32,000 nt of DNA, taken from contig CAZYLT010000002.1 in the NCBI GenBank assembly GCA_964648855.1, forward strand, positions 120,001-152,000, in the 5' to 3' direction. Positions 9,016 to 24,567 of this stretch are shown piece by piece. Source of the DNA: an uncultured archaeon (GTDB taxonomy: Archaea > Asgardarchaeota > Thorarchaeia > Thorarchaeales > Thorarchaeaceae). The translations under genes were made by a program, and so were the position numbers. Numbering within the stretch: the first letter of the stretch is position 1; every line of letters begins with the position of its first letter. Under the pieces are notes generated by a model. That model had not been told where the DNA came from. It was given only the letters and a program-made list of their open reading frames with translations, and searched no databases.

Positions 9016-10008
9016 GTGAGTATGCATTCCCATCCGGATAACGATCCAGTTTCAGATGTGCAAGAGGACGAATTGTTGCAATCCGGTGAGGTTATTAGGG
9101 CAAAATACCCTAATAATCGTGCCGAGATGTTACAAATGACCCAGTTAGATAGGACATATGATCAGATGCTCATAAAAGAGGTCGTCACCCTCGAGGAGGC
9201 AAAAGAGATTATTGAGCGAATCTCGAGTCGTGCAACTTCAAAGAGGCATGTCGTTCAAGACTATCTGACCCCCCTCATTGATAGAGGGAGAATGGAACGG
9301 GTGAGGCGAGGGCTCTACGTCATCGGAGTGCCCGATGAGAGTGGTACTCTAATGTTCCCCACGTCTCAAGGAATGAAGAAACAGAATCCGGACAAGTTCT
9401 TGATAGGCGTCAAAATTCGCGAGAGCGGATTCCTGAGCCATCATACTGCCCTAGAGGTTCATGGGGCCAGCCAGACGTTTGGCTGGGGGACGGTGTATGT
9501 TAGCGTCCCACGAAAGAAGAGGTTCTTGCCCTTTGAATATCGAGGAGTTCATTATACCCCGGTTTCAGCTAAGAATCCTTCATTGGGCGTTTCAAGGGTC
9601 AAGCACCGTGGACAGGCGGTCAGGGTCAGCACACCAGAGCGCACCTTCATAGACTGCTTGGACAGGATCGAACTTGGAGGAGGATGGGAGGAAACCTTGA
9701 AAGGAATCTCTCAACTCAGACTCAGGGACTCCGAGCTGTTCGTCAAGCTGGTTACGGAGCGGAATAACCAAACGCTTGTTCGAAGGGTCGGTCTTGTGTT
9801 CGACCGGCTCAATGAAGCTGTCAGTAATTATATCTACATGCACAACATTGGGTGGGTGCGGAAGGAACTCCAAGGGCTTCTTAAGGGGCAGTCCATGTAC
9901 ATCGATAGAGTACTAAAGGATACGACCAAAGAAGAGATGACGCACAACAGAGAATGGCGTATCTACTATCCTCATAATTTCTGGGATTTATATGAGAGAG
10001 GGGTGTAG
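9016..10008 (+). CDS. abiEi: Type IV TA antitoxin, AbiEi family (true start may be further downstream)
   Basis: wHTH with RVRRGLY, LSHHTALEVHG, STPERTFIDCLDR and RRVG motifs typical of AbiEi; 2-nt gap to the toxin gene. Confidence 0.85.
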   Translation: MSMHSHPDNDPVSDVQEDELLQSGEVIRAKYPNNRAEMLQMTQLDRTYDQMLIKEVVTLEEAKEIIERISSRATSKRHVVQDYLTPLIDRGRMERVRRGLYVIGVPDESGTLMFPTSQGMKKQNPDKFLIGVKIRESGFLSHHTALEVHGASQTFGWGTVYVSVPRKKRFLPFEYRGVHYTPVSAKNPSLGVSRVKHRGQAVRVSTPERTFIDCLDRIELGGGWEETLKGISQLRLRDSELFVKLVTERNNQTLVRRVGLVFDRLNEAVSNYIYMHNIGWVRKELQGLLKGQSMYIDRVLKDTTKEEMTHNREWRIYYPHNFWDLYERGV

Positions 10009-10010
10009 GA

Positions 10011-11096
10011 ATGACAGGGTGGAAGGATCCTGAGCCTATACATGAAGACGTCCGTGATGTCGAGGATGTTTCAGACATGCTGGATGCACGTACTATCGAA
10101 CAAGTGCGCCACCAAGTCAACATACTTGAGGAAATCTATGCGAATGCATTCATGAAGAAGCGTCTAGTGTTAGGTGGGGCAAACGCCCTTCTTTATGTAC
10201 ACTTCGAGTCTGTCCCTCGTATCATCACTCGAGTTCTGACATCCGGGATGCAGATGACAGCTATCCCAAGAGTGACGTCTGATATCGATGGTGACTATCA
10301 TATCCCTCACCAAGGAATCATCTATGAGGATGACCGGAAGGAGTTCGAGTCAAAGCTCCACGATATCCTTGTCAAGCATGGAAACCTACAGATTCGCGAG
10401 AATGATAGATCATTCAACCTTGACATCAAATACCGAGGTGATTACATCCGGGATGGGACCTTCAAGGTCGAAATCAACTTCATGCGCAGAATCCCCGTCC
10501 TTGGATATATAGAGGGAACTTTCAAGGACCCTGTATCTGACAGGACATTTCCCGTCAAGACCTATCCGAAGGAACAAGCATTCGCGAACAAATGGAGGAC
10601 CATGGTCTCGAGGAACAAGTCCTCTGACATCTTTGATGTGTGCCACATCTCCCAAGCCGATTTCAACCGGGAAGAGTTCATGAGGTGCGCTGTACTTGAA
10701 TGCATGCTTGAGTTGCGGCCACAAGGAGAACCAGACCCCACGGGAGGGGACATCCTTCAGAGGGTCCTCGGGCTCGATGTGGACAAGAAGGTCAAGAACA
10801 TGTTCAGCCTCGAATATCGACCCAAGGTCTACAAGGGCTCCTATAGCGTCGATGACCTCAAGTCGATGAGTGAGCCTGTAATTGAGTTCAGCCACGGGAT
10901 TCTTGTGGAAATGACAGATGACGACAAAGCAGCCATAGAGCGGTTCTTCACGGACAGGGATACAGCGATACCCATGCTCATCCGAGAGGTCTTGGAGATG
11001 ATCGACCCTGACCACATATTTAGTCCAATGGTACACGAGCACCCTCAGCTCCACGACCAGCTACAGCGGTTCCGGTCCGATTCTAAGGGCATATAA
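10011..11096 (+). CDS. abiEii: Type IV TA toxin, AbiEii/AbiGii (DUF1814) nucleotidyltransferase
   Basis: LVLGGANAL (GG motif), RVTSDID (RxSxDxD), KVEINF and K..R...DIFD motifs; directly downstream of AbiEi. Confidence 0.85.
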   Translation: MTGWKDPEPIHEDVRDVEDVSDMLDARTIEQVRHQVNILEEIYANAFMKKRLVLGGANALLYVHFESVPRIITRVLTSGMQMTAIPRVTSDIDGDYHIPHQGIIYEDDRKEFESKLHDILVKHGNLQIRENDRSFNLDIKYRGDYIRDGTFKVEINFMRRIPVLGYIEGTFKDPVSDRTFPVKTYPKEQAFANKWRTMVSRNKSSDIFDVCHISQADFNREEFMRCAVLECMLELRPQGEPDPTGGDILQRVLGLDVDKKVKNMFSLEYRPKVYKGSYSVDDLKSMSEPVIEFSHGILVEMTDDDKAAIERFFTDRDTAIPMLIREVLEMIDPDHIFSPMVHEHPQLHDQLQRFRSDSKGI

Positions 11097-12384: not shown

Positions 12385-12518
12385 GCCGCCGTGGCTCAGT
12401 CCGGTAGAGCGACAGCCTGTTATGCCTCAAAATCCAATTTTGAGCCGCAGACAGTTGTTGGTCGGAGTGCAATACATTCCGTATTGTGCGGCTAAAGGTT
12501 CAAACCCTCCCGGCGGCG
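12385..12518 (+). tRNA. tRNA-Asn(GTT) with two 30-nt introns (12423-12452 at 37/38; 12466-12495 at about 50/51)
   Basis: Acceptor GCCGCCG/CGGCGGC, D-arm GCTC/GAGC, anticodon stem ACAGC/GTTGT with loop CTGTTA|A, T-arm GG|AGG-TTCAAAC-CCTCC; both introns form BHB-like motifs. Confidence 0.92.
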
Positions 12519-12623
12519 CTTATTTCCAATTTTGAGCCATTATAGCCCCCTTTTGTAAAATTTAAAGCATTATGGGGCGCTTATAGCTTCGCATATGATG
12601 AGACTGCTTTTGTCATCTCTGAG

Positions 12624-13217
12624 TTATTCATCATTCTCACTATCCAATCTCATAAACCGAAGTTCTTTTTCCCATACCCTTCTACTCATTTTTTCCAGTT
12701 TTTTCTTGTATTCCTCGGTCTTTTCATCCTCAGGAACCAAGTAATACCATATTTCGTAACCATCATCTGTTGGGACATATGAAATATCTAGCATATCCGA
12801 TATCCATGGAACCTTATCCACTACGTAGTCTGCATCCTGTAGCTTCTTGATTGCATCCTCTTCTTTCATTGATCCGAGTCTTCCATTCCCCTCTGATTCA
12901 TAAAGCATTTTGAGAAAGGCTTGCTGAACGGAAGAAAGATTCTTGAGCCGCGTTCTCTCCTCTTCGCTTGGAATCTTTAAACACCACATTCGTCTAGAGC
13001 TTGGCAAGTTGTACTCGCCCTCTGGATAGGCTACCACCTTTTCCACAATCCAGTGTTCCAATGAATACTCGATTGCTTCCTTAGCGGAAACCTTTGGCGA
13101 TTCGTCTATGATTTCAAATATTTGGGTCAATCTCTTTTCCACTATGACAAGTGGCATCGGCTCCGGCCCTTTCTCAGTCAATAATCCGATAAGCTGTTCT
13201 ATATATTCATCTCTCAA
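12624..13217 (-). CDS. Hypothetical protein, possibly tandem winged-helix; candidate immunity/regulatory partner
   Basis: TTG start 6 nt after the upstream gene's stop; two helix-rich units each ending in a beta-wing-like W-x-L motif (MWCLK, IWYYL). Confidence 0.75.
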   Translation of the reverse strand: MRDEYIEQLIGLLTEKGPEPMPLVIVEKRLTQIFEIIDESPKVSAKEAIEYSLEHWIVEKVVAYPEGEYNLPSSRRMWCLKIPSEEERTRLKNLSSVQQAFLKMLYESEGNGRLGSMKEEDAIKKLQDADYVVDKVPWISDMLDISYVPTDDGYEIWYYLVPEDEKTEEYKKKLEKMSRRVWEKELRFMRLDSENDE

Positions 13218-13223
13218 AAAACA

Positions 13224-16061
13224 TCATTCCTCCATCCACCATTGTTGTACCCTTATGCCTCTGCCTTCTAATTCCTGTATTGCGTCAAATACATCTTCCG
13301 GATGCTTTGTTAACATCTTTTTCACTATGTTTCTCTTCCTTAGGTCATTTAAGGGTGCCAAAATACCAAGCTTCACCGTTTCATAGATGTCCTTGGGTAC
13401 TGCATACCATGCAACAGACACTCTCCCTGTTCGCTTATGAAACCGAGTTGTATATGGCTTGATATCAATCTCAATGCCAATAGCCTTCAGCATTCTTCTC
13501 CCACTCGTAATCATCCGATTTGGATTCTCCATGATTATCTTCTGCAAGGTTCGTGCGGAATCGGCTGTTATGGGCTCGGAGGATCTCGTAAGATCCTCTA
13601 GGGTTCCAAGTGCTAATGCCCAACAATGTTTCTCAGGATTTCCATGCTCCTTTATCAAATCAATTTCCCGCTGGCTAACCTTGGGAGGTATACCATACTT
13701 CAGAGATTTACTACCTGGATTCAATGCAACTGTATGATTCCAAGTTATACTTGACATATCTACTGTGCCATCTTGTGGTATTAAATCCCCAATAAATGCT
13801 GCAATGATTTCCCATGATCCATCGGTTACAATGGATGGAAGTCCCGAATTCTGCACCACTTTGTCTCCCGGCAGAAGCCCGAGATATTGCAGAGCAATTC
13901 CCAAGGCGGATGGAAAGAAGGTGGCATAATAGTTCTCATCCTCATTATGTTTCGGATTCGGATGAATATCACCAAATTCCTGTAGTCCTTGTATCACAAT
14001 TCGCACGCGTCTTATATCGGGTTCATAATAAGATAACGCCCCCTTCCAATTCATGTTGCAATCACTTACAACAACTGCAATCAATCTGGCAAGAGCGAGC
14101 TTCAGCTTGTGACCTTCCGGAAATCTCGGGTTCTCAACCCCTCCACTCCCACTGTACTTGGTCATCTTCTCTATTAGCCCCTCCAAATCTCTCAGGGGTA
14201 CTCCCATAATGGTGTTGATTAATTCTATATGCTTACCTTCAATCCGTCTAATCTTCTTGCTGATGCATGCTCCTTTGTCAGTCTTCGGAGCCAATTCCCG
14301 CAAGAGTTTCTCAATATGCTTGTCAATTTCTTTGACGCCCCAATCCCCCTCGGGATCTATCAGCCGACGAGCCCTGTTCAAGTATTTGGAAAATGTTGGT
14401 TCATCTCTGAAGTAGTAGTACAGGCTGCCATAGGGAAGGGTGAGGTCCTTGATTTCCATATCCCGCTTCCACAAATAGAACCGCCCGTCAATGAAGGCCA
14501 TGCGCAGTTCAAATCTTGTGTCGGCCTCGTGCGTATCTTCTGAGAGGTCTGCTCTCGCCTCTCTCCACTTCTTCACCAAGTCATCGATGCGCTCCAATCC
14601 ATCCTGTGAGAGGTCCTCAAGCCTCTTCAGGTCCGCGTAGACGATGCTTGACTCCGTATCAGAGAGCCCCTCCTGCAGGGCGTGAACAAGGTGGTCCAGC
14701 GTATCAGTTGACCATTCCCGATGATCCATGCCCTCGAAAATCTCTTCCAGCCTCTCCCGCGAAACCTCCCTGAGGTGATTCGCCTCTGCATCCCCCTCTC
14801 CAATACCTCCCTCATCCACCATGTCCACGAGTTCCTGCAGGCGTTCCTCCCGCATCAGCCGATAGAGACGCTCCAGGAGAGAGGGCGCCTCCCTGTCGTG
14901 CAACCAGAAGGACGCATCCGAAATCGTGTACCCCAGCTCCCGAGCCACCTCCACATGACTCATCTCCTCCAGTTCCTCCTCCGTGTAGCGCTCCCGAACC
15001 CTCCGTTTGAACTCCAGGTACTCACAGGCTATCTCGTACGCAGACTCGAAGTAGGGGTCGTCCCTCACCTCGGGATGGTCCTCGATGGCTCTGTCCAGGT
15101 CCTCTTTTGTCCTGATCTCCTCCCGGATTGCTTCCTCGAGCTCTTCTAGCAGGTCACGGATACGTCTGGTAAGTTCCTCCTCATCCAGCTCCTTCTCGTC
15201 ACTGTTCTCTCCCTCATCGAGTTCTTCCTGTGCAACCTTCTTCTCGCTGACCTCGGTCGGGATTGCTTCAATCTCCTCTCTCTCCCGTTCCGACCCGCCT
15301 GTCTCTTCCTTCATCTCCCGCCTGCCCTCTGAGCTGGGTTCAGGGGTCTCTGCACGGATATCCATCTCCGTCTTGGAGTCTTGTTCCCCTTTCTCGACCT
15401 CTGACTGCTCTGAGTTCTCCGATTCTTCGGTGGTGGATGTGGATTCCTTCTCTTGCCCCTCCCCATCTGGTATCTCATCAGCAATCTCCCTCTGCTGTTC
15501 AACTTCATAGGCTGGCTCCTCGGCTTCAGTGGAACTGTCTTGTGATTCCGTTTCCTCTACTTCGCTTGCTGTCTTCTCTTTCTCGATGTCATCTTGAACT
15601 TCAGGCTTCTCTGTGCTTTCCTCCTCTTCCTGCACAAGTTGTGACTCCTGCTGGGTCACATAGACTGTACCATCACCACTCTCATGATATGATTCTTGAG
15701 CATGCCCCTCATTGACTTCTCCCTTCACGTCTGAGGATTCCTGGTGGCCATCTTCCGCCTCGGGTCTCTCGCGGGGCTTATCGGCCTCCCCTACTTCCTT
15801 CTCAGAACTCTCCGACTTATCTGATGCCTCCCTGATTTCTCTGCGGATTCTCTCTTCATCTCGTAGCTCCCGCATCATCCGCCGGACGCGTCTATGGAAC
15901 TCCTCCTCTTCCAGTTCGGAGAGCATCTCCTCTATGTCCTTCTTCAGTTCCTGAAACCTTGATTCCTCGTGTAGTGCCTCTCTGAGCTCCTCTTCTACGT
16001 CGTCAGTATCTTCTGATTTCTCCCTGTACCCTTCGCGTTCTCTTCCCTCAATCCCCACCAC
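13224..16061 (-). CDS. 945-aa modular protein: acidic coiled/disordered N-terminus, HTH, C-terminal double-LAGLIDADG-like endonuclease domain
   Basis: E/R-rich N-terminal ~320 aa; HTH-like SHVEVARELGYTISDASFWL; motifs LARLIAVVVSDC (Asp codon 14061-14063) and AAFIGDLIPQDG (Asp codon 13770-13772), 97 codons apart; GGAGAGG SD upstream of GTG. Confidence 0.75.
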   Translation of the reverse strand: MVGIEGREREGYREKSEDTDDVEEELREALHEESRFQELKKDIEEMLSELEEEEFHRRVRRMMRELRDEERIRREIREASDKSESSEKEVGEADKPRERPEAEDGHQESSDVKGEVNEGHAQESYHESGDGTVYVTQQESQLVQEEEESTEKPEVQDDIEKEKTASEVEETESQDSSTEAEEPAYEVEQQREIADEIPDGEGQEKESTSTTEESENSEQSEVEKGEQDSKTEMDIRAETPEPSSEGRREMKEETGGSEREREEIEAIPTEVSEKKVAQEELDEGENSDEKELDEEELTRRIRDLLEELEEAIREEIRTKEDLDRAIEDHPEVRDDPYFESAYEIACEYLEFKRRVRERYTEEELEEMSHVEVARELGYTISDASFWLHDREAPSLLERLYRLMREERLQELVDMVDEGGIGEGDAEANHLREVSRERLEEIFEGMDHREWSTDTLDHLVHALQEGLSDTESSIVYADLKRLEDLSQDGLERIDDLVKKWREARADLSEDTHEADTRFELRMAFIDGRFYLWKRDMEIKDLTLPYGSLYYYFRDEPTFSKYLNRARRLIDPEGDWGVKEIDKHIEKLLRELAPKTDKGACISKKIRRIEGKHIELINTIMGVPLRDLEGLIEKMTKYSGSGGVENPRFPEGHKLKLALARLIAVVVSDCNMNWKGALSYYEPDIRRVRIVIQGLQEFGDIHPNPKHNEDENYYATFFPSALGIALQYLGLLPGDKVVQNSGLPSIVTDGSWEIIAAFIGDLIPQDGTVDMSSITWNHTVALNPGSKSLKYGIPPKVSQREIDLIKEHGNPEKHCWALALGTLEDLTRSSEPITADSARTLQKIIMENPNRMITSGRRMLKAIGIEIDIKPYTTRFHKRTGRVSVAWYAVPKDIYETVKLGILAPLNDLRKRNIVKKMLTKHPEDVFDAIQELEGRGIRVQQWWMEE

Positions 16062-16072
16062 GAATTCCTCTC

Positions 16073-19000
16073 CTAAGAAAGCCCATCAATCAAGGAGAGG
16101 AGGATGTGTTTCACCTCGCTCTTCGATTCTGGCACACCATAGGCTTCTCTTGCCAGGGACACGAAGCTGACTGCCTTTTCCAGCCATGATGTTCGCTCGA
16201 TTTTCGCGGTTTCCAATGCCTTGCGGACCAGTGAGACCAAGGCATCCGGCTCCCCTTCCTGTGCCAAGGCGACGCGCACTCGCCAGATATCTTCAAAGCC
16301 ATCAGTACGCAGGATTGTTTCTAATCTCTCGTTCTCAGTTGTGGGCTTGCCAGCAACTCTAGTTTCCACGATGGGTTCAGGCATAGCCTCAGCAGTATCC
16401 TTCATGATTAAACGTTTGAAAATATCATCGGGAAGAGGAGTGAACTCATGCCAATGGGGATGTCTCTCGTAGACGGTCTCCATGGCGTCGTAGACCATTT
16501 TGTTGGTGACGGGTACGCTTGGAGGTTTCTCCACGAAGAAGCGTTCTAGTTTGACGAATCGGCAATTCTTTGCCTGTTTATGGTGCTCTGTAAAGACCAC
16601 TGCCTCACCTTTCTTCATACCTGCAATATGCTCAATCTGGCCGTCGGTCAGTCCCATATGCTTCCCTACAAGGGTTCTCTCATATTCACTATTCAGAGCA
16701 TGACAGATGGTGTTCACTGGTAGTTTCACAGCCTCGCGAACGAGTTCGCCAGGAAGCTGTTCCAGCATGACCAACCCTAATCCTGTGCCTCCAGCCACTC
16801 TGAACATCTCTACAAAAGCCAAGCTGGTCTCATTCTGCATCTGGGGAGCATCAATCTGTTGTGACGAGGAGCTTCTGAGAAGGTTATGTGCCTCTTCAAG
16901 AACTAACAGATGTCTTACCACCTTGGTGGGGTGCGCCTGTTTGTATTCACTGATTCCACAGGCCAAGATCCCTGACAGGAATATCCGGTCTTCTTTCGAG
17001 AGTGCATCCATCTCGACGATAGTTGGTTTCGACAAGAGCTCAGCAAAGGATACGCCCCTGCTCGTGTTGAACATATCTATAATCACTGGATTGGTCAGCA
17101 TGCTCTCAATGCGCGACACTAGCGCCCCATACATATCTGCCTGCAACTCCTCCCCATATGGAGTGCGCTTCCGTACATCCAACACCGCGTCCACGAGGTC
17201 CGTGAGTAGAACTGGCCGTCCCTTTGTTTCATTCTTTGAGTCCCACCCACAGTTCTCATAGGCTGTTCGAATCATCCGCTTCGTATGCATCTCTAGTGTT
17301 CCACCGTTGGGCATGGAGGCTGAGAAGGCGGTGACAATCCGACTGATCCATTTGTTAAGCGGAACCCCGTCTGGCACATTGAATGGATTTATTCGGAAAG
17401 GAGCTACCTTTGGATTTCCTGCAGTGAAAATCCTCAATTCCTTGAAGATCTGCAGAAGCCGCCTCCAGTCCTGAGGCTTGTAGGGAACAAGGACAACGGG
17501 TATGATTCCTAAGTCGATTGCCTGCGCGATGACACTCAACGCGGAACTGGTCTTGCCCGAGCGCGTGTTGCCATAGATTGCCAGGTGCGAATCTAGACCG
17601 TTCGGAGGAAGCCACGAAACAATATCATCGAACTCCTCTCCTCGAACGTCCAGATGTTTCCCAAGATAGATCTTGTTTCCTATGTGATGCCATTCGACAC
17701 CTGTCTTTACTTTGGCAGAATTTCTTGTGTGTGTTTGTTTTGGAGCGGGCCTGAGCTCCTTGGTGGCCTGTGAGAACCTCTCTCTCTTTACTACAGGAAT
17801 CCCTAAATCCACTTCAGGTAGCACAAAGTATGCTGCCACCTCATCAGGAGTCAAGAGGGTGCCCTCCTTGGGCGGTAGCCCCCTCAATACGTTGGCAACT
17901 TCTTTTCGCTTGGTCTTGGCATCCACACTGAACTCGTCTTCTTCACTCAGTGGGCGGGCTCCGCCAAGCAGAGATCCCATTACTCTTCTTGCTCGTTGGT
18001 CCGCGGTTTCAATCTCTCTATCCCAGCAAGTGACGGTGACTGATGTTCGTGCAAGATGTTTATTGGAGAGTCTTTTGATTTCTCGCTCCAACTGCTCAGA
18101 TTCTCTTTTTGCCTCGGCATCGATAATCGTCTTGGACTCTTGACTGCGTCCCGAAAATAGACTGTCCTTTTCCTTGGATATGGTTGTGTGAGACCGTTCC
18201 ACTGCTGATTCATATTCTCTCTTCAGCGAGTCAATCGATCTGTTACTCACTGAGGCAGGGACTGCAAAGATCTGAATGCTACAGTTATCGCTCTTCTTTA
18301 GAAGGCTGACCGCTCCTTCGAGAATACTTGACCGTGGAACCTCTTCATCCAGTGATTGCGGAATGCCCATTGCATTCCACATGGACCCGTTCTTCTCCTC
18401 AGGAAGAACGAAACCTCTGTAGGGATTGTCCACCGTGAAGCCATACTCGGGTAGATTTGCAGTTAGGGTGTTTTCAAGCGTTTCCAGATACTGCTCTGTA
18501 GTTTCAGCATCGTCTGCCCAAGTTAGGAACAGAAGCCTGATGTATTCTCCACGTGCATCATATCGTATCGCCACAGGAATTGAGGACAAAATCATCTGTC
18601 TAACGATATTATGCATAGCCACTGTTCGCTTCTTTCTCTCCACTGGGTCCTGTTCCTTGGCTATCAGAGTATGTGGAACGGCCTCCACTCTCACCGCAGC
18701 CACCAATGGCTCAGTCTTCCTGAAGATGCTGGTGATGGACGGAGGAACTGAAATCCTAGCATTTGAAGAAGTGGAGATAGGAACAGGAAGTGCCCCTTGC
18801 TGCCCTCCTTGACTCTGGAGGTAGAGGTATCCACCAAGGACCCCACATGCTCCCGCTCCGAGGACGAGTGCATTCAGTCCGGTCCCAACGATGGGGATTG
18901 GTATGACAGACAACCAAAAGAGTCCACCAGCAATTATGGCACCAATTCCTACAACGAAGCCTGCTCCCCATGAATACAGCCACGCCCTTACATCCTGAGT

Positions 19001-19195
19001 TCCAATTAGGACCCCTGCGCCATAGAGGAAAGCGAGTCCCCCCAATAACATCGTGAACCCTATCCAATCAACAGGGACGATTCCAACAAGCAAAATCAGA
19101 TACAGCAAACCAAAACTAGGGATTGCTGTCAGAATGAGCATCCCCACTATCCTCATTACCCAGACGACCCATGAATCAGACTTCTCCTCCGTCAT
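16073..19195 (-). CDS. Membrane-anchored HerA/FtsK (DUF87, VirB4/VirD4-like) ATPase
   Basis: About 4 N-terminal TM helices; Walker A HLAIYGNTRSGKTS; FRINPF; Walker B LLVLEEAHNLL; sensor LEQLP; HAL and GEAVV C-terminal motifs. Confidence 0.88.
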   Translation of the reverse strand: MTEEKSDSWVVWVMRIVGMLILTAIPSFGLLYLILLVGIVPVDWIGFTMLLGGLAFLYGAGVLIGTQDVRAWLYSWGAGFVVGIGAIIAGGLFWLSVIPIPIVGTGLNALVLGAGACGVLGGYLYLQSQGGQQGALPVPISTSSNARISVPPSITSIFRKTEPLVAAVRVEAVPHTLIAKEQDPVERKKRTVAMHNIVRQMILSSIPVAIRYDARGEYIRLLFLTWADDAETTEQYLETLENTLTANLPEYGFTVDNPYRGFVLPEEKNGSMWNAMGIPQSLDEEVPRSSILEGAVSLLKKSDNCSIQIFAVPASVSNRSIDSLKREYESAVERSHTTISKEKDSLFSGRSQESKTIIDAEAKRESEQLEREIKRLSNKHLARTSVTVTCWDREIETADQRARRVMGSLLGGARPLSEEDEFSVDAKTKRKEVANVLRGLPPKEGTLLTPDEVAAYFVLPEVDLGIPVVKRERFSQATKELRPAPKQTHTRNSAKVKTGVEWHHIGNKIYLGKHLDVRGEEFDDIVSWLPPNGLDSHLAIYGNTRSGKTSSALSVIAQAIDLGIIPVVLVPYKPQDWRRLLQIFKELRIFTAGNPKVAPFRINPFNVPDGVPLNKWISRIVTAFSASMPNGGTLEMHTKRMIRTAYENCGWDSKNETKGRPVLLTDLVDAVLDVRKRTPYGEELQADMYGALVSRIESMLTNPVIIDMFNTSRGVSFAELLSKPTIVEMDALSKEDRIFLSGILACGISEYKQAHPTKVVRHLLVLEEAHNLLRSSSSQQIDAPQMQNETSLAFVEMFRVAGGTGLGLVMLEQLPGELVREAVKLPVNTICHALNSEYERTLVGKHMGLTDGQIEHIAGMKKGEAVVFTEHHKQAKNCRFVKLERFFVEKPPSVPVTNKMVYDAMETVYERHPHWHEFTPLPDDIFKRLIMKDTAEAMPEPIVETRVAGKPTTENERLETILRTDGFEDIWRVRVALAQEGEPDALVSLVRKALETAKIERTSWLEKAVSFVSLAREAYGVPESKSEVKHILLSLIDGLS

Positions 19196-19548
19196 ATGAC
19201 TACTTCCCTACCTACTGCTATTCTTCGAGTTCACGAAGAAGGCGTGCGGGTGGCGGCATGGTGTGTATGTATGTGATACAATTATACTAAAGTCATGTGC
19301 TGGGTGGAAATTAGTCGTCTTTGAACTCAATTATGAATATAAGACACATAGAAGGTTTTATCGAATTTAAGTAAGTCTAATACGATTCATAAATCCCTTT
19401 ACCCCGCTCATATTGCCTAGATGACGTATTCATCATCGCAACCGGCACAATAACTTCCTACTTTCTTACTTGGAAAACATATTGAAAACCGTTTGCAGGA
19501 TGCTTTATTAATTGCCAAACTTAGAGGGGCATTTGGTGGGGACAAAAG

Positions 19549-19800
19549 ATGAACTCAAATCTTACCAATATTGAAGACATTGGGAAAGCCGTAACGTTAC
19601 TCGGATTAGTTTCACTCATCGGTGCGGCTGTATCATACATACAGATTATGAACTTGGCTCTAACTCTGAAGGACACGGGAGTAGTTACGGACATGACTCC
19701 ATATTTACTACTCACATTGGTACAGCTTGCATTGGTTGTAGTTTATGCTATAGTCATCATGCTAGCATACGGAGTAATGAAGAGAGTCCGAAACCAATAA
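19549..19800 (+). CDS. Small two-TM membrane protein
   Basis: ATG start with upstream GGTGGG; two long hydrophobic segments and a basic C-terminus. Confidence 0.6.
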   Translation: MNSNLTNIEDIGKAVTLLGLVSLIGAAVSYIQIMNLALTLKDTGVVTDMTPYLLLTLVQLALVVVYAIVIMLAYGVMKRVRNQ

Positions 19801-19806
19801 TCAAGA

Positions 19807-20504
19807 TTAGGTACTTCTCGTCAGGATAACTGTGTAATCATATCCTGCGACATGACTGAAGCGCCAATAGTACTCGATATAGTTCGGAAGTCCTGTTGTT
19901 CGATTAACCAGACCATATGTGGAAGAATAGTAAGAACCATGGCCTGATCCCGGCATTCTCCACTCACGATACAAGCTATACTCTCCGGTGAGCGTTTTCG
20001 TCCCATTGTATTCATATTGACTCGGGAACGGCGATTCTTCATTATATACAATCTCCAGTTTCGTATCAAAGAGTGACTCTACGAATGCCCAGTTTCCCAC
20101 TGGAAATATCAAGAATGACACTAAACCCCCAATCGGTACTTGGCTATGTACACCATTATCTGGGCCATCCAGAAAACTCGCATTCGCCTTTCTAGGATTT
20201 GCTATCTCTTCTATGAAGATTCGTGCGGTGATGTTATTCGGAAGGTCTGGTCGCTGACTATATCAATCACAATCTGAGAATTATTTCAAGGAACCCAATC
20301 ATCTACTATATCACCATTGCCACCAGTTTCATGGATTCTGAAGTCATAGATGACAGTAGTATCGGCGATATCCGCCTATTCGAGTTCATGACTCTCTTCC
20401 TTGGTGGGCTCAAGAGGATTATTCACAACGAGAATCGTGATTCCAGATGCTATGATGATAACTGATATGATCACAGCCAGTACATATCTTCCGTGTTTCT
20501 GCAA
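19807..20504 (-). pseudogene. Disrupted gene for a membrane-anchored/secreted protein
   Basis: TTG start at 20504 gives MQKHGRYVLAVIISVIIIASGITILVV (signal anchor); in-frame TAG (20376-20378) and TGA (20286-20288); frameshift near 20250 joins the 19807-20121 frame. Confidence 0.65.
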
Positions 20505-20644
20505 GGCCCTCAATCCACACCAGTAGTGTAGAATATGCATATCAGTCTAATCATCTCCGTGATATTGTGACAAGACGCAGTCAATTGTCCGCTTTCGAAG
20601 ACCCAATATCCTTTTGACGAACCCTCCCCCTCTTTGGTGGTAAG

Positions 20645-21316
20645 ATGGAAATAAGAACAATTGCTCGGAAGGTAGCATACGTGATCTTCTGGTATGTCAT
20701 CTATCTGAACCTCGTATTGTATATCTTTATCCCGAGCATCTTCAGTCAATTGGAGTATTAGCTTCTCATTCTGGTAATGATTGCAACTGGGGCTATCGAC
20801 ACTGTTTTTCGTCAGTTATCTGAGAGGGGAAGTGCACGGGACAAATACACTCTACTTATGCTGGTGTTATTCCTTCTGAACCCTCTCCTTTGGATTCTCG
20901 CTTATTATGAAAAAAACCTCATAATCTCCACATTCATTCCTCTTCTGGATACAAGGATTATCAGCTATCTGGGGCTCATCATCTTCATAACTGGCAGCAT
21001 CATCTCAATAGTGGGACGAATGCAGTTGAGGTCATTTGGAAGCGGCTATATAGTGATTGAGGAGCGTCATGAACTTGTACAGAGTGGCATCTACTCTAAG
21101 ATTAGGCATCCTATCTATCTGGGCGGTCTGATTGGTGTACCTGCCATGCTGCTGGTATTTCGATCTCTGTTAATGCCCATTATAGCACTCTTAATCTACT
21201 TCATAATTCTTCGATGACGAATGGGAAAAGAAGAAGAAATGTTGAAAGATGAATTCGGACCCGAATATGTCGAGTATACGAAACAAACAAGTAGACTTAT
21301 TCCTGGCATATATTAA
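20645..21316 (+). pseudogene. Isoprenylcysteine carboxyl methyltransferase (Ste14/ICMT) family gene with two in-frame stops
   Basis: One frame from ATG 20645 (GGTGG upstream) to TAA 21316 with TAG at 20759-20761 and TGA at 21215-21217; ICMT motifs HELVQSGIYSKIRHPIYLG and, after the TGA, RMGKEEEMLKDEFGPEYVEY..RLIPGIY. Confidence 0.85.
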
Positions 21317-24460: not shown

Positions 24461-24567
24461 TGGTGGGCCCGACGAGAGTTGAACTCGTGACCGCTCCCTC
24501 GCCTGAAGGAAGTCTCCAGACGTACAGGTTATGAGCCTGGTGCTCTACCAAGCTGAGCTACGGGCCC
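24461..24567 (-). tRNA. tRNA-Ile2(CAT) (less likely Met) with a 30-nt non-canonical intron (about 24494-24523); CCA encoded
   Basis: Reverse complement GGGCCCG TA GCTC..GAGC A CCAGG CTCATAA CCTG [intron] CGGTC ACGAG TTCAACT CTCGT CGGGCCC ACCA; GGGCCC acceptor is typical of archaeal Ile tRNAs. Confidence 0.88.

Follow-up and report, generated by a model that had tools for sequence, protein, structure and literature searches.

A candidate motor, nuclease and inhibitor module with a LAGLIDADG-type effector in a thorarchaeal genome

Described systems and the thorarchaeal locus

ATPases of the FtsK/HerA superfamily power both type IV and type VII secretion systems (T4SS and T7SS). Here we describe a three-gene locus headed by such an ATPase in an uncultured thorarchaeon. 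It lies in a window of 32,000 nt (the whole stretch of DNA analysed, G000:C2:120001-152000, from a genome of 3.1 Mb in 62 contigs), in which three open reading frames (ORFs) follow one another on the minus strand with intergenic gaps of 11 and 6 nt. A preceding sequence-only reading of the window had listed three co-oriented genes with these spacings, and the ORFs and their translations agree with it. Gene 1 (16073-19195) encodes a 1040-aa ATPase of the HerA/FtsK superfamily, DUF87 type (P0001), gene 2 (13224-16061, GTG start) a putative effector of 945 aa (P0002), and gene 3 (12624-13217, TTG start) a tandem winged-helix protein of 197 aa that is predicted to inhibit a nuclease (P0003). Computational evidence supports a motor-effector-immunity architecture for this locus, with a pump-type ATPase genetically coupled to an exchangeable nuclease effector that has a predicted partner over its active face. 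We rate the module as belonging to a known kind, the ATPase-coupled toxin-immunity conflict modules, with three new parts: the LAGLIDADG effector, the predicted winged-helix inhibitor and the acidic leader. In archaea, polymorphic toxin systems of the classical kind have been reported as rare or absent, as have the immunity families that go with them (PMC3482391).

In its working the module comes nearest to either a T7SS locus of EssC, LXG nuclease and immunity gene or a HerA-nuclease defence pair, and it fails to show the defining features of both. With the T7SS pairing of EssC/YukA and LXG- or EsaD-type toxins with their immunity proteins (YeeF-YezG, for example) it shares a membrane-anchored motor of the FtsK/HerA superfamily, effectors that join a conserved N-terminal part to an exchangeable C-terminal nuclease, and, if gene 3 is indeed an immunity gene, its placement directly downstream and the occurrence of orphan copies. 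Bacterial relatives of the module ATPase also adjoin pairs of Endonuclea_NS_2 and YezG-like genes. EssC, however, has three ATPase domains and two transmembrane (TM) helices, whereas the module ATPase has one domain and about four TM helices; EssC carries FHA domains, of which Pfam called none in P0001, and T7SS have WXG100 partners, whereas Pfam called no WXG100 or LXG domain among the ORFs scanned. The poly-acidic effector N-terminus, the LAGLIDADG warhead, the tandem winged-helix inhibitor and the archaeal host are further differences. The NurA-HerA (end resection), Sir2-HerA and DUF4297-HerA assemblies likewise place the gene of a hexameric HerA-family ATPase beside that of a nuclease or effector expected to work with it, and they are patchily distributed and tied to defence islands, as the module is. 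In contrast to them, the module has an effector that is none of NurA, Sir2 and DUF4297, a PADLOC match to HerA that is only partial, a membrane anchor, a dedicated predicted protein inhibitor and cassette exchange.

The individual proteins have described counterparts of their own. The C-terminal domain of gene 2 resembles I-DmoI, I-Tsp061I, PI-PfuI and PI-SceI (fold Z 14-16.7, root-mean-square deviation (rmsd) 2.4-3.0 Å), with two LAGLIDADG helices that end in an acidic residue and lead into a beta-saddle. Unlike these homing endonucleases it lies outside any intron or intein, behind about 650 residues of acidic, helix-turn-helix (HTH) and middle regions, in an operon-like array with an ATPase and with a predicted protein inhibitor; we know of no protein inhibitor of the LAGLIDADG enzyme family. 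WhiA also combines LAGLIDADG and HTH parts in one cellular, non-intron protein (fold match Z 13-14), but gene 2 keeps the catalytic Asp residues, has its HTH N-terminal to the LAGLIDADG domain, and belongs to a lineage-restricted, multi-copy family, whereas WhiA is a conserved single-copy regulator. The layout of P0001, in which a TM block at the N-terminus is joined through a long linker to a motor of FtsK/HerA type at the C-terminus, is that of FtsK, SpoIIIE and Streptomyces TraB and of VirD4/TraD. Compared with these proteins, the module shows no evident gamma-domain, FtsK-orienting polar sequence (KOPS) or clt logic, it has no T4SS or relaxase gene among the scanned neighbours, and the partner of its ATPase is a nuclease with a predicted inhibitor. 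Our literature search found no link between HerA/FtsK ATPases and LAGLIDADG or homing endonucleases in archaea, Asgard archaea included; the FtsK-HerA paper of 2004 and a 2019 survey of polymorphic toxins in archaea lay outside its coverage.

Motor, nuclease and predicted inhibitor

The putative effector carries most of what is new. Residues 650-945 of P0002 (13227-14114, minus strand, as are all gene features given in this section) form a double-LAGLIDADG domain with a C-terminal extension. An AlphaFold (AF2) model of residues 300-945 has a mean predicted local distance difference test (pLDDT) score of 87.7, exceeding 90 over the C-terminal half, and displays two alpha-beta-beta-alpha-beta-beta-alpha half-domains with a beta-saddle, the arrangement that defines the double-motif LAGLIDADG fold. 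The best 50 matches listed by Foldseek for this model are all LAGLIDADG proteins, and VIA-align places it with the endonuclease of the TliVMA intein (Z 16.7), with I-Tsp061I (Z 15.2, 183 of 204 residues) and with I-DmoI (Z 14.1, rmsd 2.4 Å, 167 of 183 residues), so that the fold proposed from the letters alone for the C-terminus of gene 2 was recovered. The two LAGLIDADG helices end in Asp667 (LARLIAVVVSD, 14061-14063, model helix 351-368) and Asp764 (AAFIGDLIPQD, 13770-13772, model helix 451-465). Asp667 is kept in every LAGLIDADG-type homologue aligned, and the Asp of helix 2 with its following Gly (D465/G466 in model numbering) is near-invariant in the family alignment A1, with D or E in stand-alone paralogues; both acidic residues are retained across all aligned homologues, including those at 20-30% identity. 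Pfam LAGLIDADG models gave no match to P0002 at E≤1, and the distant members at loci L020 and L025 pass LAGLIDADG_3 (31.5 and 33.2 bits, cut-off 22.5) and carry textbook motifs such as FVQGLADGDGYA. By predicted fold and transitive homology P0002 is thus a divergent member of the LAGLIDADG family, and its endonuclease domain, with both catalytic Asp residues present, is apparently active. A word-indexed homologue search with residues 380-945 found nothing; six-frame searches of whole genomes then gave many relatives, so this blank marks a limit of sensitivity and does not make P0002 an orphan. PADLOC has no family for P0002 or P0003.

Ahead of the nuclease, the first 330 or so residues of P0002 (15072-16061) form an acidic low-complexity region with a net charge of -13 to -30 per 100 aa, and Glu makes up 30% of the first 300 residues. 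Acidic N-termini occur in 12 of the 15 ATPase-linked gene 2 proteins and in one of six unlinked paralogues. This tracking of ATPase linkage suggests that the leader is a polyanionic handle for a DNA-type pore. A loose motif of the form EGG-x-R-x-RR-EY-D/E stands before the acidic region whatever the type of nuclease (15990-16061 in the window; loci L009-L031) and could serve the ATPase as a docking signal. Residues ~331-640 (14142-15071) hold an HTH and a helical and beta middle region, conserved in the family alignment and visible in the model. The HTH signal is weak (matches to MerR_1, HigA and MBF1), a search of PDB sequences with the A1 profile gave weak HTH matches and nothing else useful, and A1 has no conserved stretch of 7-10 columns. 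The description of gene 2 as a long acidic protein with an HTH and a double-LAGLIDADG end therefore agrees with its composition, with these weak matches and with the predicted fold.

Gene 3 has a less telling fold. The P0003 model (pLDDT 85) consists of winged-helix domains at residues 1-85 and 87-166 and a long C-terminal helix at 168-196, and fold searches return generic winged-helix proteins only (Z≤8.6; Foldseek E≥3.8e-3; Atlas TM <0.5), so P0003 is assignable to no specific family and to no known immunity family. The complex prediction is more informative. When the nuclease region of P0002 (residues 599-945) was modelled with P0003 in three runs and with controls, the ipSAE score was 0.88 in all three against 0.01 for the best control, with a contact agreement of at least 94% and a partner pLDDT of at least 87. 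Of 80 solved complexes 58 attained this mark, as did 2 of 110 mismatched pairs, counts that are approximate here given the custom alignments. On the nuclease side the contacts (model numbering) are residues 368/370/372/376/378/380 and 465-478, which comprise both catalytic Asp residues and alternate residues of the strands that follow; this is the concave DNA-binding saddle of LAGLIDADG enzymes. P0003 reaches it with its C-terminal helix (173-196) and a hairpin (143-156). The model supports the view that gene 3 would block the access of the nuclease to DNA, as an immunity or antitoxin protein would, and it predicts the binding between the gene 2 C-terminus and gene 3 that the first reading had named as a check. 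Divergence of gene 3 and of the nuclease is correlated (Mantel r = 0.82, p ~6e-4), and we set this aside as evidence of co-evolution because linked, co-inherited genes are expected to correlate.

The motor is placed at the level of the superfamily. P0001 contains a Walker A motif (GNTRSGKT, residues 542-549, 17549-17572) and a Walker B motif (LLVLEEAH, residues 763-770, 16886-16909), found by motif search and conforming to the P-loop NTPase patterns GxxxxGK[ST] and hhhh[DE]E. There is one such set, and matches to ATPase families are confined to one block at residues ~519-875. About four TM helices form a putative membrane anchor at residues ~7-120 (18836-19177; Kyte-Doolittle windows >1.6), so that the hydrophobic block and the motifs named in the earlier description of gene 1 were both found; 12 of the 17 archaeal homologues share such a block. 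P0001 itself stays below Pfam thresholds, DUF87 being missed, and NCBIfam gave partial matches below threshold to CedD (E 1.5e-7), TraD (E 1.7e-5, at the Walker A region) and HerA (E 2.6e-5). PADLOC returned only partial HerA and mad8 matches of 20-28 bits, and a PDB sequence search with residues 480-1040 gave nothing useful. An exhaustive phmmer search found 3675 homologues at E≤1e-3 among 1.84 billion cluster representatives, and homologues at E 1e-35 to 1e-77 pass DUF87, along with HerA_C and sometimes TrwB or FtsK (Pfam); the Atlas neighbours are all DUF87/HerA clusters. The closest named relative, from a metagenome-assembled genome (MAG) of Candidatus Thorarchaeota, has an ATPase that is 87% identical. 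We accept P0001 as a member of the FtsK/HerA superfamily on its motifs and transitive homology, in no named subfamily.

Linkage, cassette exchange and surroundings

Six-frame searches over 41 related genomes showed that the three families occur mostly in one family of the phylum (f1). Among its 24 genomes in this set, gene 2 was found in 15, the ATPase in 14 and gene 3 in 11, and several copies per genome are common. Counted over 59 genomes of that family, gene 3 is present in 24, and none of the 191 genomes searched in 27 further families of the phylum has it. At each of the 17 ATPase loci examined, the next gene on the same strand is a gene 2 homologue, which often overlaps the ATPase gene by a few bases, and this adjacency spans at least 10 genera of one family; such linkage is not due to chance, and it upholds the expectation that the genes would stay together in other genomes. 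Gene 3 comes next in seven of the 17. No additional conserved gene family recurs in the related loci. In three genomes (G000, G001 and G007) the module occupies the same chromosomal site, between genes for MutS-like and phosphoesterase proteins and a ZIP transporter. When G000 is compared with G007, the flanking proteins show 65-78% identity and the ATPases only 36%, which on these sequence comparisons would mean either fast evolution or replacement at a hot spot.

The nuclease changes against this background. In the ATPase tree, locus L031, whose gene 2 ends in eight NUMOD3 repeats and an HNH domain, is sister to L020 with its canonical LAGLIDADG partner (support 100/99), and L017 with an A1-type LAGLIDADG partner is the next branch beside them (support 100/100). 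Similarly, L024 is sister to L025: the L025 partner is a LAGLIDADG protein, and that of L024 has HTHs of the sigma-70-r4 type and HNH-like motifs (CxxC...H, with a weak match to the HNH of L031), its C-terminus finding nothing in a search of PDB sequences. Two gene 2 paralogues of genome G002 (L009 and L020) have residues 1-564 in common at 45% identity and unrelated C-termini, and the ATPases beside them are 79% identical over the comparable stretch. In the window gene itself the G+C content at third codon positions (GC3) drops near codon 600, from 0.6-0.77 before it to 0.37-0.45 after it. Two orphan cassettes without an ATPase, each a truncated nuclease with an intact gene 3, start downstream of this break, at P0002 residue 618 (L027) and 710 (L026). 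Extra copies of gene 3 stand alone (G000:C33), in tandem (G021:C225:2-1718 and G006:C10) or as four dispersed copies on one contig (G234:C2), three repeats are fused in one 673-aa frame (G059:C107:8086-10035), and in some genomes gene 3 copies outnumber those of gene 2. A contig from the same genus (G001:C44, L022, 8700-8760) shows a clean 5.9-kb deletion relative to window positions 13566-19441, with CGGC microhomology; the ATPase and the greater part of gene 2 are lost, and gene 3 remains at 90% identity.

Two marks of a polymorphic toxin system are found here, a conserved N-terminal part with exchangeable C-terminal domains, and orphan cassettes of toxin C-terminus and immunity gene together with surplus immunity genes. 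The interleaved ATPase tree and the L009/L020 pair provide the conserved N-terminus and variable C-terminus that the sequence-only reading had named as a check. These comparisons strongly support the view that nuclease and gene 3 are exchanged together as a cassette on a more conserved ATPase and acidic N-terminal part. An early view of ours, that gene 2 has a variable N-terminus and a conserved C-terminus and hence is no polymorphic toxin, was dropped after the ATPase tree and the L009/L020 comparison. Another contig of the same-genus genome (G001 C56) retains the ATPase and the gene 2 N-terminus and lacks the counterpart of window positions 19465-21298, and the differences between C44 and C56 suggest structural variants within the population.

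The three-part logic also exists outside archaea, where well-known toxin and immunity families occupy the slots of the LAGLIDADG domain and gene 3. Its ATPase domain shares 23-29% identity with ATPases of ~1000-1200 aa from Lachnospiraceae, Synergistota, Desulfovibrionaceae and Actinomycetota. At each of the five loci examined in Bacillota, Synergistota and Desulfovibrionaceae, a gene for a small nuclease toxin (Colicin-DNase/WHH, LHH or Endonuclea_NS_2) comes directly after that of the ATPase, a SUKH, YezG-like or DUF6985 gene is next, and one or two dynamin-family GTPases lie upstream (LeoBC-like match, E 3.6e-15). The full order of these operons (L033, L035, L036, L038 from Anaerosporobacter mobilis DSM 15930, and L041) begins with beta-helix proteins, before the dynamin GTPases, the DUF87/HerA-like ATPase, the nuclease and the SUKH, YezG or DUF6985 gene, and we found no published description of this operon type. 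The operon at L033 adjoins a pair of CBASS-like (cyclic oligonucleotide-based antiphage signalling system) DncV and E1/E2 genes. One bacterial ATPase relative matches mad8 of PADLOC at E 1e-22, more strongly than P0001 does. In a metagenomic relative (L042, 5659-7680), the gene after the ATPase encodes a 673-aa protein that is acidic over its whole length (about -22 net charge per 100 aa), with a C-terminus that bears a weak, sub-threshold likeness to a domain of the anthrax lethal factor type (ATLF, E 1.3e-4).

Upstream of the ATPase, a TATA-like TTTAGTATAA (19281-19291, minus strand) lies about 85 nt before the ATG, and the leader contains a perfect 7-bp inverted repeat, TTCTTCG-N6-CGAAGAA (19221-19240, minus strand), both read from the sequence and both roughly kept in the same-genus genome. 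Positions 19221-19291 of the minus strand are likely the operon promoter and leader, and these elements could serve the module's HTH or winged-helix proteins as an operator. At the upstream edge, about 240 nt before the ATPase start, lies a 34-nt element (19431-19464) with a second genomic copy at G000:C2:240748-240775 (L053). Both rearrangement junctions of the same-genus MAG map to the edges of this element, which may be a boundary of the module or a recombination site. The L053 copy lies about 280 nt upstream of a 98-aa ORF resembling the TM N-terminus of the ATPase and adjoins a stretch that resembles a tRNA gene by eye. Direct repeats of 14-23 nt occur around the module and are not taken for att sites, since 17 such families within 9 kb is the chance level. 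The stretch was found in four microbial-mat DNA runs of one study, with no RNA run among those listed, and the contigs aligned to it showed only the paralogous 34-nt element and single-nucleotide polymorphisms between strains.

A tRNA-Asn(GTT) gene with introns (12385-12518, plus strand; Rfam RF00005, 34.3 bits, missed by ARAGORN) lies 105 nt past the stop of gene 3. The module had been placed immediately downstream of this tRNA, which holds in plus-strand coordinates and fails for the operon, because the tRNA lies past the 3' end of gene 3 with its own 3' end facing that of the operon in convergent orientation. A related module (L016) abuts the 3' end of a tRNA-Ala in the same geometry. Within tRNA-Asn, the 14-nt TCCAATTTTGAGCC occurs exactly twice, in the intron (12433-12446) and at 12525-12538, 6 nt past the tRNA 3' end, and a second intron-bearing tRNA gene at 24464-24567 is likewise matched by Rfam and has no ARAGORN call. 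Beyond tRNA-Asn from the module, at 9016-11096, lie an AbiEi-like gene (330 aa) and an AbiEii nucleotidyltransferase (361 aa), a toxin-antitoxin and abortive-infection pair that the syntenic stretch of the same-genus genome (L022) lacks. The other genes flanking the module are ordinary cellular ones. Among the neighbouring window ORFs that were scanned, no NurA, Mre11, Sir2, relaxase, T4SS (VirB4, pilus), replication or integrase gene was found, in line with the earlier remark on missing NurA/Mre11, Sir2, relaxase and T4SS neighbours, and a PHROGs search returned no informative match and thus no sign of a virus.

Export, defence and other readings

We favour, at a probability of roughly 0.4, a three-gene conflict module of motor, nuclease effector and cognate inhibitor whose nuclease is exported against competitors. 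In such a module gene 3 would lie across the beta-saddle of the nuclease, touching both catalytic Asp residues and keeping the enzyme off DNA. The motor, as a hexamer, would engage the poly-acidic N-terminus of gene 2 as a DNA-like polyanion, and ATP hydrolysis would strip the nuclease from gene 3 and move it across the membrane through a channel formed by the TM ring of the motor itself, an arrangement proposed for SpoIIIE. The exported nuclease would attack the DNA of competitors without a matching gene 3, and orphan gene 3 copies would protect against the nucleases of neighbours. Polymorphic toxins that are exported bear the signature of cassette exchange, orphan cassettes and immunity arrays (PMC3482391). 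The part that the superfamily plays in T4SS and T7SS, the 4-TM block in 12 of 17 archaeal motors and the tracking of ATPase linkage by the acidic leader also speak for export. A more specific version strikes us as tentative at best: a minimal export weapon in which a single SpoIIIE/FtsK-like protein, motor and channel at once, would thread a poly-glutamate, DNA-mimicking leader and bring a homing-endonuclease warhead into rival cells, with a winged-helix cap as immunity. It is similarly doubtful that such a weapon shares ancestry with the bacterial system of dynamin, HerA, toxin and immunity.

Several observations weigh against export. We infer it for a locus with no other secretion component in the scanned neighbours, and TM-like segments are missing from 5 of 17 archaeal ATPases and from 5 of 8 bacterial relatives checked, so a membrane channel cannot be the universal core function. 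P0002 has no signal peptide and no known trafficking domain (Pfam, NCBIfam). The proposal of a secretion or contact-toxin module is thus supported as far as the motor-effector-immunity architecture goes, and export is the part of it that may hold. Typical toxins also lack the high sequence specificity that is normal for LAGLIDADG and NUMOD3-HNH enzymes. Gene 3 is absent in about half of the 14 archaeal loci with a full-length gene 2 and a readable downstream region, and no co-oriented small gene follows gene 2 in L015, L016, L017, L024 and L031. The complex prediction that casts gene 3 as inhibitor used shallow custom alignments of 17 and 12 rows. There are also six stand-alone paralogues with HTH, middle region and LAGLIDADG domain, 574-1034 aa long, that have neither ATPase nor gene 3 (L054-L059). 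Finally, defence genes neighbour the module: AbiE in the window, PLD/DrmC-like nucleases at L011 and L013, and CBASS at L033; they count against export because defence islands house intracellular immune systems. The stand-alone paralogues (at G020:C22, G018:C29, G007:C118, G002:C4, G006:C6 and G022:C109, in order) retain the catalytic D and D/E, lack the acidic N-terminus in five of six cases, and may be free-standing homing endonucleases and the source pool for the warheads of the module.

Intracellular defence against viruses or plasmids is a close rival that fits almost as well as export, although on balance we consider it unlikely to be the right one. Here the motor, at the membrane in this locus, would sense or grip incoming foreign DNA and either free the nuclease from gene 3 through ATP-driven remodelling or feed the DNA to it in the way that HerA serves NurA, with degradation of the invader or abortive infection as the outcome, and gene 3 would be a safety catch instead of immunity against neighbours. 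HerA-family ATPases do pair with nucleases or NADases in NurA-HerA, Sir2-HerA and DUF4297-HerA, and the partial PADLOC matches of P0001 point the same way, as do the TM-less ATPases, the loci without an inhibitor gene, the island context just listed and the LeoBC-like dynamin GTPases that precede the bacterial ATPases. The module is also patchy, multi-copy and fast-evolving (the ATPase at 36% against flanks at 65-78%), and HTH and NUMOD3 arrays would suit DNA recognition inside the cell. Set against this, orphan cassettes, gene 3 arrays and a surplus of gene 3 are hallmarks of exported toxins and not of immune systems, a homing-type nuclease with a long recognition site would make a poor general restriction enzyme, and the bacterial WHH, LHH, EndoNS_2/YezG and SUKH families are those of secreted toxins (PMC3482391).

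Three further explanations rank as less likely than both export and defence. DNA processing or transfer, with the LAGLIDADG or HNH enzyme cutting or nicking a defined site in place of a relaxase and a membrane FtsK/TraB-like pump moving the DNA out of or into the cell as a minimal device for conjugation or uptake, would suit the resemblance of the four TM helices, linker and motor to FtsK, SpoIIIE and TraB, the partial CedD and TraD matches, the site specificity of homing-type nucleases with HTH or NUMOD3 arrays, and the position of the module against tRNA 3' ends at two unrelated loci. We nevertheless hold it improbable: the scanned ORFs include no pilus, VirB4, relaxase, replication or integrase gene, LAGLIDADG enzymes are not known to form covalent adducts with DNA, and the inhibitor, its orphan arrays, the non-specific colicin-type DNases with immunity genes in bacteria and the poly-acidic N-terminus would all be left unexplained. 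Slightly less probable again is that gene 2 is a free-standing homing endonuclease lodged by an unrelated ATPase and uncoupled from it, in the manner of phage homing endonuclease genes that settle next to conserved genes, with gene 3 a transcription factor. LAGLIDADG and NUMOD3-HNH nucleases do share one slot, stand-alone HTH-LAGLIDADG paralogues are scattered in these genomes, and the fold of gene 3 is generically DNA-binding. Homing endonuclease genes are usually sporadic, however, and this slot is filled in 17 of 17 loci, with operon-like overlap or close spacing; gene 2 is three to five times as large as a homing endonuclease, the presence of its acidic leader correlates with linkage to the ATPase, the predicted binding site of gene 3 is the DNA cleft of the nuclease, and bacterial relatives hold non-homing toxins in the same position. 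Least probable of all is a domesticated, non-cutting LAGLIDADG and HTH regulator like WhiA with gene 3 as co-regulator. WhiA is indeed among the fold matches and gene 2 includes an HTH, but WhiA has lost the catalytic acidic residues that are kept in the aligned gene 2 homologues, HNH replaces LAGLIDADG in sister loci, arguing that cutting is the selected function, and the family is lineage-restricted, with a patchy distribution and multiple copies.

Asgard archaea are the closest prokaryotic relatives of eukaryotes, and their means of fighting competitors or parasites are little understood. The module would give Thorarchaeota a lineage-specific, multi-copy conflict system, and it would be the first case of the LAGLIDADG homing-endonuclease fold serving as an exchangeable effector. 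Gene 3, if a true inhibitor, would to our knowledge be the first protein found to inhibit a LAGLIDADG enzyme, and a possible off-switch for engineered meganucleases. The archaeal module would also be tied to a widespread type of bacterial operon made up of a dynamin-like GTPase, a DUF87 ATPase, a nuclease toxin and an immunity gene. If the motor does grip the poly-acidic leader, this would show the conversion of a DNA pump into a protein pump, and the export weapon, if true, would add a new route of secretion and give Asgard archaea their first dedicated polymorphic-toxin system.

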